This document shows positions 18,509 to 23,238 of a stretch of 64,000 nucleotides of DNA, piece by piece. Both the position numbers and the translations under genes were made by a program. The notes under the pieces were generated by a model that worked only from the letters and a program-made list of their open reading frames with translations, was not told the origin of the DNA and did no database searches. This DNA is from Escherichia phage FL08. The stretch lies in sequence record PP400785. The stretch is one strand, 5' to 3'. How positions within the stretch are numbered: position 1 is the first letter of the stretch; each line of letters starts with the position of its first letter.

Positions 18509-18513
18509 CAATG

Positions 18514-18540
18514 GGGACCTTTCGGTCCCCATATTTTTAT
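18514..18540 (+). terminator. rho-independent terminator after gene 54
   Basis: GGGGACC-UUUC-GGUCCCC followed by AUAUUUUUAUUU. Confidence 0.7.
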
Positions 18541-18827
18541 TTACGGAATGAAATGAAAGCAGCAACTGAAGCAACTAAACTGTCTTCAATATAAACTTCA
18601 ATTTTTACCGGAGCTTCTGACTCAAATTTACCTGTTACTACACCCTGAAAAATACTTTCAGTCTGTTCTGGCTTTGAAAAATTTTCAGAAGGAAAAATTC
18701 CGAACTTTTTATCTGTTCCAAAAATTTTGATAAATTCATCGTAAACTGCTTCATTAAAAGCATTATCAGCAGGAATAACGCCTTCAACTACAAGTTCTTG
18801 ACCTAAAAAGCGCAAAGAAGATTTCAT
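18537..18827 (-). CDS. hypothetical protein (alt.-3 position)
   Basis: 96-aa ORF, GAGGAA SD, preceded by an early promoter cassette. Confidence 0.5.
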   Translation of the reverse strand: MKSSLRFLGQELVVEGVIPADNAFNEAVYDEFIKIFGTDKKFGIFPSENFSKPEQTESIFQGVVTGKFESEAPVKIEVYIEDSLVASVAAFISFRK

Positions 18828-18834
18828 TTTGTGT

Positions 18835-18888
18835 TCCTCATGTTATGTCAGTAAGACTACTATAACACAACACGAGGGACTTGTAAAC
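18835..18888 (-). repeat. 54-bp promoter-leader cassette, copy 1 (copy 2 at 34091..34144)
   Basis: tcctcatgttatgtcagtaagaCtaCtataacacaacacgagggacttgtaaac; 52/54 identical to the copy upstream of alc. Confidence 0.8.
18859..18888 (-). promoter_or_regulatory. early promoter (GTTTAC-N18-TATAGT) for the ORF at 18537..18827
   Basis: The - strand reads GTTTAC aagtccctcgtgttgtgt TATAGT; part of a 54-bp cassette repeated at 34091..34144. Confidence 0.55.
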
Positions 18889-20945
18889 TACATCTTGAAC
18901 TTTTTAGACATTCCGTTGATGTTAACCAAAGAAGCTAAGATTTGAGAAACTTCGTTTTCCTCTTCTTTTGATTCTTCTACAAGGAATTGATTAAATCCAG
19001 CCATTGGACGAACTTCACCAGTTTCCATTAGATGGTCGCCATCATATACTGATTCTTCTAATTGTTCAGAAGGAGGAACGATTGTACCTTCGATTAGATA
19101 CTTGTTATAAGCAGTTTCTTTCATAAAGTAAGTACTTACTTTATTAATCTTCAGTAAAATTCCACGTGGTAGAATAACTTCAGCTTCTGACGGAAATCCT
19201 GATAAATGACCCGGAACGATAACTTTGATTCGCTCAGCTCCTTTAATTACCATACCCACGCTAGTTTCAGCATCTTCATTAGCATATGTAGAATGACTAC
19301 CCATATGCATCAAATCTTCTGCATCAACGGAACCTTCTCCTTCACCAGAAAATACTGCGCCGGAATCATCTAGAGCCATATAGTTTTTACCATGCTCACC
19401 GAAGATATTTGGTTTAAGCGATGTGGATACGAAGTTCTTGAAATAGAACATTTTATTTTCAATGTTATGACGCAAAGTTTTAAAGGTAACTTCTTGTCCA
19501 CGGTAAAGTGTAGTTCCTGGAGGAAGAACTGAACCTTTAGCGAATGCAGAATCAAGCGTCTCAATATGTTTAATAGCTCGTTCCATATATTCTTCACGGG
19601 TAGAATCTGGTTTACCCAAAAGGAACGAGTTCATTTCAACATATGAATCTGCACAATAATCTTCAATTACATCAGATTCAGCTTGAGTTAATCCTTTTGG
19701 AGTTACTTCAGTGCTTGCGTATTCATATGCCTGAGCAGCAGATTCATTAATCAATTTATAAATGCCATTCATGACAAATTGAATAATAGCTGTCTTTTCA
19801 TCTGGCGTAGCTTTAGAACCTTTAACCAAATCATTGATAATTTTCTTAATAACATCAAAGCTATTAGAAATATTAATATCAGCAAGATCGCTTAAAATTT
19901 TATCAGTCTTATAATCAAAGAATTCTTTATTCTTTAAATATTCTTGAGAACCTTGATATGTTATATCGCTCTGTAACTTGATAGATGGATCACGTAAACG
20001 TGCATGGGCTAATGCAATATGATTTCGGAAGCTTTCGAGTTCATAATCACTAGATTTAAAACGAGAAGCGCTTCTCATACCGCCTATAGCTCCTTTGCTG
20101 AAGTTTGAACCAATTTGAATAACGCCAGAGTTCATTGGTCCTTCTGCTTTATACACCGGAACTTTAGATTCAAACTCTTGATATTTCTTAGCAGCGAAGC
20201 TATCACCCTGAAGTGAAGCATCAACAGTAGAATATTGAGCTTGTGCTGCTAATCGACGACTAATTTTAGTTTTCTGAATAACAGCTTGGTCCGTGCGCTT
20301 ATCATTTTCTAAAGCAATAGAAGCAGCAACAGCAACAGCTTTAGGAACAGCATTACCTGTTTTAACATCTACATAAACATCACCAACCTTTGATTCAACT
20401 TTTGTGAATAACTCAGTTGAAATAGGAGGTACACCTGGAATGTCTTCTAAATTGGCATTTTTACGATAAACCATAATATATGCGTACTTTTTATCATAAT
20501 CCCAGATTTCCTTTAAAAGAACATATCGACCTGCTCCTTTAGTACGTACTAAACGGTCAGCAATAACTTGCATTTGACGAGCAGCGCCATTTGTTTTACT
20601 CTTTAGTACGCGGAATAAGCATGCATCAATTTTATACTGTTTCATTGTTTGAAGAGCAGTATCAAAAACAGCGTTAATGACGCCAATTGGATTTCCACCC
20701 AAGTTTCTAAGTTTAACCAGTGATAATTTCTCGTTGACACCTATCATTACGATATGCATCATTTTATCGCCCGGCTTAACGTTTTTATTTGTATCACCTC
20801 CAGAGGTGTATGTACAAAATCTAAATCCAGGAAGCACGCTTTCTTCGCCGGCTTGAATAGCAAAAATTTGAGGTATTTTATGCTTAGGATTTAAGTTAAC
20901 AACCGGCGCCGAAGCGCCGTCAAATAATTCTGTAATAAGTTCCAT
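18888..20945 (-). CDS. Alt-family ADP-ribosyltransferase paralog (distal copy)
   Basis: 685 aa; N-terminus MELITELFD... and first ~230 aa clearly homologous to the upstream alt ORF; C-terminal region has R (TLYRGQ), STS (FVSTSL) and E-x-E (SEAEV) ART-like motifs; translationally coupled (TAA-atc-ATG). Confidence 0.8.
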   Translation of the reverse strand: MELITELFDGASAPVVNLNPKHKIPQIFAIQAGEESVLPGFRFCTYTSGGDTNKNVKPGDKMMHIVMIGVNEKLSLVKLRNLGGNPIGVINAVFDTALQTMKQYKIDACLFRVLKSKTNGAARQMQVIADRLVRTKGAGRYVLLKEIWDYDKKYAYIMVYRKNANLEDIPGVPPISTELFTKVESKVGDVYVDVKTGNAVPKAVAVAASIALENDKRTDQAVIQKTKISRRLAAQAQYSTVDASLQGDSFAAKKYQEFESKVPVYKAEGPMNSGVIQIGSNFSKGAIGGMRSASRFKSSDYELESFRNHIALAHARLRDPSIKLQSDITYQGSQEYLKNKEFFDYKTDKILSDLADINISNSFDVIKKIINDLVKGSKATPDEKTAIIQFVMNGIYKLINESAAQAYEYASTEVTPKGLTQAESDVIEDYCADSYVEMNSFLLGKPDSTREEYMERAIKHIETLDSAFAKGSVLPPGTTLYRGQEVTFKTLRHNIENKMFYFKNFVSTSLKPNIFGEHGKNYMALDDSGAVFSGEGEGSVDAEDLMHMGSHSTYANEDAETSVGMVIKGAERIKVIVPGHLSGFPSEAEVILPRGILLKINKVSTYFMKETAYNKYLIEGTIVPPSEQLEESVYDGDHLMETGEVRPMAGFNQFLVEESKEEENEVSQILASLVNINGMSKKFKM

Positions 20946-20948
20946 GAT

Positions 20949-22997
20949 TTATCCTTGAACGAACTTGTAAGGCATGTTTGTAATATCTATGCAAGACGCA
21001 ATAATTCCAAGAGATGATTCTACTTTCTGTTTAACATTTGATGAAACAAATGATGCAAAGTCAACTCTATCTTCTATATCACCTGTCATTGTAACTACTT
21101 CGCCGGTTTCCATTAAACGGTCACCGTCATAAATTACTGATTCGGTGAGTTCTTCGGTGGTCATAACTTCAGCTTGAATAAGCTTGTTGTTAGTTTTGAC
21201 TGTTCCATCATTGTAAGATGCATCAGTTATTTTATTAACTTTGACCATTAATCCACGTGGCAAAATGACTTCCATTTCATTTGAAGGCGCTAAACTTCCA
21301 CCGGGTAAAACAACATTGACTTTATCAGCCCCAGTAATAACCCATCCAATTCCGACTAAATTATCGCTAGAATTAACAAGCCCTTCATCATTTTTATCGA
21401 TAGAAATGTTTAGACGCTTTTCATCTGGTAAAACACCAACAGCTGAATCAGTCATCCAAGTACCAAAAATGTTTGGATATAATGATGTTGATACAAAATT
21501 TCTAAAATAAAAAACTCGATTTTTTACCATTGCTTCGTATATTGAAGGTAACATTCGTTGTGAACGATACAAAGTAATACCTTTTGGTAATCGTTCACCA
21601 TTTTTAAAGGCTGAATCTAAATTATCAATAGCTTTTTCTATGTCAGATGCTGTCAAAATACTTGTACGCTCATCTGGATTATATAATCCCAAAAGAGCAT
21701 TATTTATGTCTACATATCCTGAACCTACGTATTCACGAATTCCGCGTTTTTGTGCTGGTGTGTATTTAGATGAATCTTTATTTTCGACTATAGGATGTAA
21801 TGACCATCCAGCTGTAAGAGCATATCCACGTAATTCTCTTCGAATAATCTTTGTTTTTATTGCATTCCAAGAATTTTGTACTAACTCATTTGCAGCATCT
21901 TGGTTTAAATGCGAATGTTTGTTAATATTTCTTTCAAACCAAGCACCTTTATATTTTTCTAAAGTATCATCGACGATAGAAGCAATAGTTTCTAAAGTTT
22001 TTATTGAAGTAATAGATTCTTTTCGTAATTTTTCTAAAGCTTTATTTTTTATTTCTGCATTAATAATGGATTCTTTATCTTCAGGAATTATAGAAGCTTC
22101 TCTGAATGCCATCCCAGCTGTAACACTGCTAAGAGCATTCTCTAGTGCAAATCCTGAAGTAGAAATTACCGTTAATTCATTAGAATCAGAAATTAAAGGC
22201 GCATCAGCGGGTTTATTTAATTCTGCTGCTGAAGCCTCAAATTTTTGAAACATCGGTGTTTCAAATCTAGAAGATTCCAATGACTGACTTTGTGCAATTG
22301 CTCTACGGGAAATTTTAACTTTAACGATTACAGCTTGGTCAGAACGTTTATCATTTTCTTGTGCAATAGATGCTGCAATTGCCTCATTTTTGGTTACTTG
22401 AGCTCCGGTATCTTTATTGATATAAACATCACCGACCTTCGATTCAACTTTAGTAAAGAGCTCGGTACTAATTTCCGGAACTCCTGGAATGTCTTCTAGT
22501 GATACATTTTTGCGATGTATAAGAATATATGCATACTTTTTATCATAATCCCAGAGTTCCTTAAGAAGGACGTATCTGCCACCTGAACGACTACGGATAA
22601 GTCTATCAGCAATAACTTGAATTTGTCGAGCTTGACCAGCGGTTTTAGACTTAAGAATACGAAGCATACAAGCATCAATTTTATACTGACGCATTGTTTG
22701 CATTGCAACAGTAAAAACTGAATTGATATAATTAATTGGGCTTGGACCAAGACCTTTTAATTTAGCAATTGAACCTTTAGCGGTTAATGTAAAAGGAACA
22801 ATATGCATCATTTTATCGCCCATTTTTAAATCGCGATTAGTATCACCTCCAGATGTATAGGTACATAAACGAAAGCCTGGTTGTTCAATTGCATCATCAA
22901 CATGAACTGAAAAAATTTGCGGTATTTTCTTCTTTGGATTTAAGTTTGTAATCGGAAGAGTAGTATCTTCGTCAAATAATTCTGTAATAAGTTCCAT
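20949..22997 (-). CDS. alt: Alt ADP-ribosyltransferase (packaged, proximal copy)
   Basis: 682 aa from the second ATG (GAGAGG SD), equal to the T4 Alt length; MELITE/ protease-site motif; R (LYRSQ), STS (FVSTSL), E-x-E (NEMEV); late promoter upstream. Confidence 0.82.
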   Translation of the reverse strand: MELITELFDEDTTLPITNLNPKKKIPQIFSVHVDDAIEQPGFRLCTYTSGGDTNRDLKMGDKMMHIVPFTLTAKGSIAKLKGLGPSPINYINSVFTVAMQTMRQYKIDACMLRILKSKTAGQARQIQVIADRLIRSRSGGRYVLLKELWDYDKKYAYILIHRKNVSLEDIPGVPEISTELFTKVESKVGDVYINKDTGAQVTKNEAIAASIAQENDKRSDQAVIVKVKISRRAIAQSQSLESSRFETPMFQKFEASAAELNKPADAPLISDSNELTVISTSGFALENALSSVTAGMAFREASIIPEDKESIINAEIKNKALEKLRKESITSIKTLETIASIVDDTLEKYKGAWFERNINKHSHLNQDAANELVQNSWNAIKTKIIRRELRGYALTAGWSLHPIVENKDSSKYTPAQKRGIREYVGSGYVDINNALLGLYNPDERTSILTASDIEKAIDNLDSAFKNGERLPKGITLYRSQRMLPSIYEAMVKNRVFYFRNFVSTSLYPNIFGTWMTDSAVGVLPDEKRLNISIDKNDEGLVNSSDNLVGIGWVITGADKVNVVLPGGSLAPSNEMEVILPRGLMVKVNKITDASYNDGTVKTNNKLIQAEVMTTEELTESVIYDGDRLMETGEVVTMTGDIEDRVDFASFVSSNVKQKVESSLGIIASCIDITNMPYKFVQG

Positions 22998-23020
22998 CAT
23001 AGCCTCTCTAGTGTTTATTC

Positions 23021-23028
23021 TATTTATA
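23021..23028 (-). promoter_or_regulatory. late promoter (TATAAATA) for alt
   Basis: The - strand reads TATAAATA about 20 nt upstream of the alt ATGs, just downstream of a terminator hairpin. Confidence 0.7.
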
Positions 23029-23033
23029 AAATT

Positions 23034-23051
23034 AAAGGCCCGAAGGCCTTT
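23034..23051 (-). terminator. terminator hairpin after the ligase operon, preceding the alt late promoter
   Basis: The - strand reads AAAGGCC-UUCG-GGCCUUU followed by AAUUUUAUAAAUA. Confidence 0.6.
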
Positions 23052-23238
23052 AGTAATCTAGTGGTAAGAGAGTACGATATATTTCAAACTTTGGTCCTTT
23101 TTCATAGGCATCAAATGTTTCTGTAAATTTATTATAAGCGTATGCATCTACAAATTCGAGAATGACTTGTGATACAGAAGTAGAAACATCTCCACCTTCT
23201 TTTTGAGCAATGACAATTGTTTCTAAGTAAGCTTTCAT
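23050..23238 (-). CDS. hypothetical protein
   Basis: 62-aa ORF coupled to the ligase stop (ATGA overlap). Confidence 0.45.
   Translation of the reverse strand: MKAYLETIVIAQKEGGDVSTSVSQVILEFVDAYAYNKFTETFDAYEKGPKFEIYRTLLPLDY

Follow-up and report, generated by a model that had tools for sequence, protein, structure and literature searches.

The alt locus and its two genes

The window analyzed here, a stretch of 64,000 nt from Escherichia phage FL08 (record PP400785), carries on its minus strand two tandem genes for ADP-ribosyltransferases (ARTs): a proximal gene of 682 aa (20949-22997), the ortholog of T4 alt, and a distal gene of 685 aa (18888-20945), which we call altB. Both had been pointed out in an earlier reading of this DNA made from its letters alone (the sequence-only reading), and the list of open reading frames (ORFs) bears this out; as stated there, both proteins begin with MELITELFD, the I-x-E motif included. 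The proximal protein is nearly the same as T4 Alt (NP_049811), with 672 of 682 residues identical (98.5%).

The 4.8-kb alt region is 100% identical to that of Escherichia phage vB_EcoM_G4498, a Tequatrovirus, whose RefSeq record (NC_054918) labels both genes 'Alt-like RNA polymerase ADP-ribosyltransferase'. The order of genes is ligase (gene 30), alt.1, alt, altB and alt.-3, followed by genes 54 and 48 on the opposite strand, and it is likewise in T4; the pair sits between gene 30/alt.1 and alt.-3/gene 54, the synteny of T4 Alt. Identity and gene order make this the alt locus of a T4-like coliphage (Tequatrovirus), holding what appear to be two anciently duplicated ART genes. Features of the locus are collected in Table 1.

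Comparison of the two proteins

In a BLASTP comparison the two proteins were 41% identical over their whole length (E 1e-157), far beyond chance. The identity is spread unevenly: six of six at residues 1-6, 67% in the N-domain (7-238), 23% in the middle (239-415), 37% in the ART domain (416-625) and 43% in the C-terminal tail (632-685). The sequence-only reading, which had seen ~230 aa of homology followed by divergence, was right, although homology at a lower level extends as far as the C-terminus. The common layout has four parts: a 6-residue N-propeptide, an N-domain (Pfam PF26846), a helical linker with a C3/VIP2-like R-S-E ART domain, and an acidic tail after L-x-E.

Both proteins pass the gathering score of Pfam PF03496 (ADPrib_exo_Tox), 23.4 bits: the proximal protein scored 125 bits and AltB 71.9 bits; no NCBIfam model matched either of them. 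The R / S-T-S / E-x-E motifs described in the sequence-only reading are present in both proteins. In AltB they follow the order of the family, Arg / S-T-S / (Q/E)-x-E, and the ART (NAD-binding) fold, on whose integrity in the distal copy the sequence-only reading had made its case depend, was found there. The catalytic Arg, both Ser of S-T-S and both Glu of E-x-E are invariant across 15-16 diverse family members, and the aligned relatives also share an unchanging ILPRG after the E-x-E; the middle position of S-T-S may be T, A or S. AlphaFold2 (AF2) models of the two proteins have the same order of secondary-structure elements.

Two observations on the proximal gene concern numbering. An in-frame ATG (22998-23000) abuts the annotated alt start and would yield a protein of 683 aa beginning with MMELITE. 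The second ATG is favoured by the spacing of the GAGG Shine-Dalgarno sequence (5 nt versus 2 nt) as well as by the published 'ITE-6' numbering; the published catalytic mutant 'E577A' seems to be numbered on the 683-aa form of Alt.

Selection on altB and its remnant in T4

Among eight phages, the ratio of non-synonymous to synonymous substitution rates (dN/dS) of altB was 0.017-0.053, with dS up to 0.26, and no segment, from the N-domain through the middle and the ART domain to the C-terminal tail, stood out from these low values. These values, with the complete set of motifs, characterize AltB as an intact full-length paralog under strong purifying selection. The distal copy was also considered as a pseudogene, a candidate rejected on dN/dS and the conserved motifs.

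In T4, the gap between alt and alt.-3 is 421 nt long and is annotated with alt.-1 (61 aa) and alt.-2 (67 aa). Over the first ~350 nt of altB we found this interval to be ~93% identical, apart from a 1-nt deletion; the alignment then resumes in the final ~20 nt of the gene and continues into the 3′ flank, so that 1,699 bp lying between two 9-bp microhomologies, CTAAAGAGT and CTAAAAAGT, are gone. In fact, an identical junction and an identical 1-nt frameshift are found in T4 (locus L002:5034-5454) and in two unrelated contigs (L006:6097-6560 and L007:6052-6520), making this one ancestral deletion allele, spread by recombination into backgrounds that differ in their proximal allele.

On this alignment alt.-1/alt.-2 are a remnant of full-length altB, produced by one 1,699-bp deletion and a frameshift. 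The sequence-only reading had been unsure whether the distal copy corresponds to a named T4 ORF, and the remnant supplies the answer. Furthermore, residues 1-56 and 62-117 of AltB are matched by PHROG families 23015 and 15247, which consist of fragments like alt.-1 and alt.-2. The T4 record describes alt.-1/alt.-2 (NP_049810, NP_049809) as 'a duplication of the first part of gene alt', whereas the alignment makes them what is left of a full-length gene; the GenBank note understates their origin.

Processing sites and the N-domain

T4 Alt is cut by the prohead protease gp21 at ITE-6 and LTE-619, as found by mass spectrometry of heads (PMC5694885; reviewed in PMC9026906); the cut at LTE-619 takes off 63 C-terminal residues and leaves a mature protein of 68.2 kDa (PMC5694885). 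A head holds ~40 copies of Alt (PMC9026906). Both gp21 sites are kept in the proximal protein of the window, and its residues 7-619 calculate to 68.2 kDa. AltB begins with an identical MELITE; near its C-terminus the residues aligned with the second site are L-E-E631, with Ser next, and (L/I/M)-x-E-(S/A) occupies this position in 15 of 15 aligned sequences. At the level of sequence motifs, AltB has predicted gp21 processing sites at both ends. Mature AltB would consist of residues 7-631, with a mass of 69.1 kDa.

The shared YDGD(H/R)LMETGEV near the C-terminus, reported in the sequence-only reading, is present as YDGDRLMETGEV in the proximal protein and YDGDHLMETGEV in AltB, but it lies in the C-propeptide and not in the catalytic domain. 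As the motif begins just 2-3 residues past the C-terminal gp21 site, it belongs to the acidic C-propeptide (isoelectric point ~4.2-4.6) rather than to the enzyme. Within YDGDxLMETGEV the residues Y, D, G, D, E, G and E are invariant, which suggests that the motif serves for targeting, as a tether or in auto-inhibition; such a role of the Alt C-propeptide has been raised as an open question (PMC5694885).

The N-domain corresponds to Pfam PF26846 'Tevenvirinae_ADPRT', as seen from precomputed hits on AltB orthologs and relatives and from the 67% identity to the N-domain of Alt. When 1.84 billion representative proteins were searched exhaustively with phmmer, it was found in 69 clusters only, nearly all of proteins 600-712 aa long with the domain at the N-terminus. 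Out of ten N-domain proteins scanned, eight had a C-terminal PF03496 domain (one of the eight, a truncated protein, below threshold). Being found almost only in the Alt architecture, the N-domain is a dedicated companion of the Alt-type ART, consistent with a role in delivery or core assembly. A resemblance to GNAT is seen at the level of the fold only; no GNAT family was matched in a Pfam scan that reached up to E 10.

Three other proteins, P0183 (485 aa), P0184 (541 aa) and P0185 (221 aa), match the Alt N-domain distantly (E 7e-8 to 8e-7) and showed no PF03496 ART domain in Pfam scans at E up to 10; they could be N-domain scaffolds bearing another effector or none.

From the conserved processing sites we infer that AltB is likely to be packaged as well. 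As to published virion data, a proteome of a Klebsiella T4-like phage lists only one ART; the data for Yersinia phage fD1 (PMC8309999) list ligase and helicases as particle-associated and look contaminated with non-structural proteins.

Expression of the pair

The T4-type late promoter core TATAAATA has a single exact match on the minus strand within 18.8-23.1 kb, located 21-24 nt upstream of the proximal start; the late-promoter-like sites within alt and altB all have a mismatch. That the exact match acts as a promoter is deduced from its fit to the consensus and from T4 Alt being a late, packaged protein (PMC5512222). A scan of the alt/altB interval for terminator-like hairpins found none. 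With one late promoter consensus in front of the pair and neither a terminator nor an exact late promoter in between, co-transcription of alt and altB is likely. The single late promoter of the sequence-only reading thus holds as to the number of exact sites and the missing hairpin, while its function as a promoter is read from the consensus.

A terminator-like hairpin, TAAAGGCCTTCGGGCCTTTA with a T-run, sets the unit of gene 30 and alt.1 apart from that of alt. The first terminator-like site that follows the late promoter on the minus strand, one weak intragenic match aside, is the bidirectional hairpin at 18511-18532; a late transcript starting at 23021-23028 would run through alt.-3. The frequency of sigma-70-like matches in the region (19) was not elevated over the 19.6 expected from shuffles.

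The 3-nt separation of the genes, TAA-ATC-ATG, was read directly at the junction in agreement with the sequence-only reading. This spacing is common to T2, T6, SHBML-50-1, locus L015 and the T4 remnant; Salmonella phage KM16 has 35 nt there. The statement that the genes are translationally coupled lacks support: an AAGGA Shine-Dalgarno sequence free of structure serves the distal start itself, and the 100 nt around this start folded no better than shuffles (z +1.07), a value on which coupling via RNA structure was rejected as positive evidence. Re-initiation is allowed by the 3-nt spacing though not demonstrated by it; strict coupling is possible.

Two small genes flank the pair. T4 Alt.-3 with C-terminal extensions is the product of escape mutations against CmdTAC, a defence system that ADP-ribosylates mRNA (PMC11618068); an ART-related conflict gene, therefore, adjoins the phage's own ARTs. 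On the other side, alt.1 (23050-23238), the gene that separates alt from ligase, encodes 62 aa with a match to Pfam PF24647 'Phage_blade' (E 2e-29); its naming in public records is inconsistent (siderophore-interacting protein, ssDNA-binding protein).

Table 1. Features of the alt locus in the window (positions count from the first letter of the window; a dot marks a feature of both strands)
Feature	Position	Strand	Basis or remark
Bidirectional terminator hairpin between alt.-3 and gene 54	18511-18532	.	NC_054918 annotates terminator
alt.-3 (DUF5498, 96 aa)	18537-18827	-	downstream neighbour; T4 annotation and Pfam
Sigma-70 / T4-early-like promoter TTTACA-17-TG-TATAGT	18859-18887	-	directly after altB stop, before alt.-3; consensus match only
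altB, distal gene, 685 aa, 76.0 kDa	18888-20945	-	ORF list
AltB C-propeptide, residues 632-685	18891-19052	-	includes YDGDHLMETGEV
T4-deletion segment	18899-20606	-	9-bp microhomologies CTAAAGAGT (20598-20606) and CTAAAAAGT (18899-18907); 1,699 bp gone in T4
YDGDHLMETGEV, AltB residues 634-645	19011-19046	-
AltB ART domain, residues 416-631	19053-19700	-
AltB predicted gp21 site L-E-E631	19053-19061	-
AltB E-A-E 587-589, F584 in ARTT turn 1	19179-19187	-
AltB hypervariable acidic insert, residues 518-554	19284-19394	-
AltB S-T-S 507-509	19419-19427	-
AltB catalytic R482	19500-19502	-
AltB helical middle, residues 239-415	19701-20231	-
AltB N-domain, residues 7-238	20232-20927	-
AltB N-propeptide, residues 1-6	20928-20945	-
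alt-altB junction	20943-20956	-	AAGGA Shine-Dalgarno 20952-20956 in last proximal codons; TAA 20949-20951; ATC; ATG 20943-20945
alt, proximal gene, T4 alt ortholog, 'A1' allele, 682 aa, 75.8 kDa	20949-22997	-	ORF list
Proximal C-propeptide, residues 620-682	20952-21140	-	includes YDGDRLMETGEV
YDGDRLMETGEV, proximal residues 623-634	21096-21131	-
Proximal helical middle and ART domain, residues 239-619	21141-22283	-
Proximal gp21 site L-T-E619	21141-21149	-
Proximal E-M-E 574-576	21270-21278	-
Proximal S-T-S 503-505	21483-21491	-
Proximal catalytic R478	21564-21566	-
Proximal N-domain, residues 7-238	22284-22979	-	Pfam PF26846
Proximal N-propeptide, residues 1-6	22980-22997	-
T4-type late promoter core TATAAATA	23021-23028	-	consensus match
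Terminator-like hairpin TAAAGGCCTTCGGGCCTTTA and T-run	23033-23052	-	just after alt.1, upstream of late promoter; NC_054918 annotates terminator

Distribution and alleles

For comparisons between phages annotated GenBank records were used, in place of an IMG/VR scan that had yielded five loci. The proximal slot in Tequatrovirus holds one of two alleles of Alt type (A): A1, the T4 type (682-684 aa), or A2 (697 aa; T2, T6, SHBML-50-1 and others); AltB is of B type. Probes of ~1 kb specific for the helical and ART part, the 'warhead', were run against 50,697 phage records and detected A1 in 174, A2 in 338 and B in 401 of them. By these counts AltB is present in about three quarters of sequenced Tequatrovirus genomes, which number roughly 530, T2 and T6 included, and is the most conserved of the three.

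The A2 loci of SHBML-50-1 (L008:4501-6594), T2 (L016:7798-9891) and T6 (L017:10359-12452) were compared with 20949-22997 of the window. In the A1 and A2 pair compared, identity is 100% over residues 1-240 and 88-100% past residue ~585; it is 15-68% in between. The difference looks like a cassette-like exchange of the helical and ART warhead. Combinations seen are A1 with B (the present locus and AR1), A2 with B (T2, T6), A1 with the remnant (T4) and A2 with the remnant (contig L006).

The middle and ART region of AltB is 35-66% identical to that of the B-type proteins of other genera and 25-29% identical to that of any A-type protein. Salmonella phage KM16 and a metagenomic contig have tandem A and B genes with the same synteny. 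This synteny, together with the identities within the B lineage, indicates that the duplication is older than the split of Tequatrovirus from these relatives and that both lineages have been kept since.

Three AltB orthologs (P0003, P0005 and P0006; 89-95% identity) are A-type over the first ~55 to ~215 residues and B-type from there on, indicating gene conversion between the tandem N-domains. Gene conversion may also explain the similarity of N-domains, as A and B within one genome are 67% identical and B-type proteins across genera 66%. The proximal Alt of KM16 (L013:2872-4965) is 23-29% identical to every other A or B protein in the middle and ART region, which suggests that further warhead types beyond A1, A2 and B exist in other Tevenvirinae genera. 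The picture, as drawn from these alignments, is of an alt locus with a conserved delivery scaffold and exchangeable catalytic cassettes.

Target specificity

T4 Alt ADP-ribosylates Arg265 of the RNA polymerase alpha subunit as well as other proteins (PMC2988021). The two paralogs diverge above all in three regions: the helical middle (23% identity), the insert that follows S-T-S, and turn 1 of the ADP-ribosylating toxin turn-turn (ARTT) motif. In the R-S-E toxin family the E-x-E goes with arginine specificity. The insert between S-T-S and ARTT (residues 518-554 of AltB) is long, mostly acidic and modelled with a predicted local distance difference test score (pLDDT) <50; its length and sequence differ in every lineage. 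One relative, P0012, has an extra acidic insertion of ~22 residues in it.

In the B lineage the fifth residue ahead of the catalytic Glu is aromatic (GFPSEAE, YYMGEAE, EYPEEAE), and in the A-type proteins it is not (APSNEME, PQSQEME); we take this position to match F209 in ARTT turn 1 of C3bot. Since the delivery parts (N-domain, cleavage sites and C-propeptide) are conserved and the warhead (middle, post-S-T-S insert and ARTT turn 1) is not, AltB most likely has, by analogy with the toxins, a target set different from that of Alt.

Proposed role of the pair and alternative explanations

We propose that alt and altB would be transcribed late as one mRNA from TATAAATA at 23021-23028. Alt and AltB would then enter the prohead core, where gp21 would trim them at I-T-E6 and at the C-terminal L-x-E to ~68 and ~69 kDa. 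Both ARTs would be ejected with the DNA, with NAD+-dependent ADP-ribosylation of arginines in host proteins taking place before phage gene expression. Altogether it is rather probable that the locus encodes two virion-delivered mono-ARTs, co-transcribed late, packaged, gp21-trimmed and injected, with AltB acting on targets that are probably other than those of Alt. The more specific proposal, that AltB is a second virion-delivered ART with a target set apart from Alt's, possibly in counter-defence or in translation or metabolism, and that alt is an arms-race locus with swappable warheads (A1, A2, B and others), is possible and is offered tentatively.

Several points weigh against such a role. 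The presence of AltB in virions, its cleavage and its enzymatic activity have been deduced from sequence; the difference in targets is argued from sequence divergence and from what C3-like toxins do; the late promoter was recognized by its consensus and not by a mapped 5′ end; and the AF2 models, built on shallow alignments of 15-16 sequences, are of medium confidence (pLDDT ~72). Also, T4 thrives without AltB, and T4 alt mutants are viable; any role of AltB is thus non-essential in laboratory hosts.

One could ask whether AltB is simply redundant, i.e. packaged and injected like Alt, with essentially the same targets (alpha Arg265 and others), and adding only dosage or robustness. The architecture, the catalytic motifs and the E-x-E signature are alike in the two proteins, T4 manages without AltB, and an overlap on alpha Arg265 exists already between Alt and ModA in T4 (PMC2988021). 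However, identity in the middle and ART region is only 25%, and the lineages differ systematically in ARTT turn 1 and in the post-S-T-S insert. Furthermore, in several genera purifying selection has maintained A as well as B, which would be unusual if the two were purely redundant; the retention of both lineages argues against it, and the proximal slot alternates between A1 and A2 while B stays constant. We regard redundancy as unlikely. A different location of action, with AltB made late but left out of the head and acting in the producing cell, e.g. on host or phage proteins, appears quite improbable. Packaging of AltB is so far a deduction, altB comes second in the operon, and ModA and ModB are ARTs of the T4 family that act without being packaged (PMC5512222). 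Yet AltB retains the 6-residue propeptide identical to that of Alt, the N-domain (67%), the C-terminal L-x-E site and the C-propeptide. Both cleavage sites of packaged T4 Alt are present in it, and its N-domain is almost confined to the Alt architecture in the 1.84 billion representative proteins searched.

The deleted and frameshifted remnant in T4, L006 and L007 would suit a distal copy that is decaying or catalytically dead, or that serves as a structural core protein only. Against this stand the 685-codon ORF, counted intact in 401 records, a dN/dS of 0.02-0.05 that extends to the ART domain, and the invariance of R482, S507, S509, E587 and E589 within an intact ART fold; such an explanation is hardly credible. 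Delivery of two different ARTs by the virion is the reading we prefer. What the sequence-only reading observed is confirmed, and its interpretation, injected ARTs with different host targets, is largely reasonable, if only partly supported. That reading had also named the case of two annotated, conserved genes with identical function; annotated and conserved they are, but identity of function is not established.

Alt is a textbook enzyme injected with phage DNA. If AltB were injected too, T2, T6 and about three quarters of the sequenced Tequatroviruses would deliver two different ARTs within the first seconds, with T4 being the exception, and one of the first proteins injected by most T-even phages would have escaped decades of work based on T4. 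This would affect the reading of early host take-over, of ADP-ribosylome data and of differences between T-even phages on defence systems. The proposed scaffold-plus-warhead layout would also be of use where phage heads are engineered to deliver proteins. At present, the alt/altB pair is an annotated, conserved and ordinary genomic feature.

Comparison with known systems

The feature is already known, as both proteins are annotated in RefSeq, Pfam, PHROG 802 and hundreds of genomes, and paralogous duplications adjoining alt were reported in 2006: T4 alt.-1/alt.-2, RB49 ORF183c and 44RR ORF187c/188c (PMC1524935). Our literature search for a named or characterized second Alt returned that 2006 note and general reviews of Alt, and no functional study. 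The GenBank record of AR1 has two alt genes (AR1_201/202), the distal one 'best matched' to RB32; the A and B pairs of RB32, T2 and T6 represent the same tandem phenomenon as the present locus. The additions made here are modest: the deletion origin of alt.-1/alt.-2, the C-terminal processing site, the place of YDGD in the propeptide, the selection on altB, the ARTT difference and the distribution of A1, A2 and B.

The closest known protein is T4 Alt itself. AltB has the same architecture, synteny, late-promoter context, ITE propeptide, L-x-E site and R-S-E/E-x-E active site; it differs in being 41% identical overall and 25% identical in the middle and ART region, in the ARTT aromatic residue and in the post-S-T-S insert. 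Alt has been assigned to the Alt/VIP2 R-S-E clade, with its baseplate-gene context and packaging noted (PMC5512222, PMC9503650). T4 ModA and ModB are of the same clade and also modify the host (PMC5512222); in contrast to Alt and AltB, they are early proteins of ~200 aa, without N-domain or propeptides, and are not packaged. The C3, VIP2, iota and Vis toxins (PF03496) are delivered by secretion or by the B-component of a binary toxin, whereas Alt-type ARTs are delivered by the phage head; in comparison with these toxins, the phage proteins add the PF26846 domain, the helical linker and two propeptides removed by a protease.

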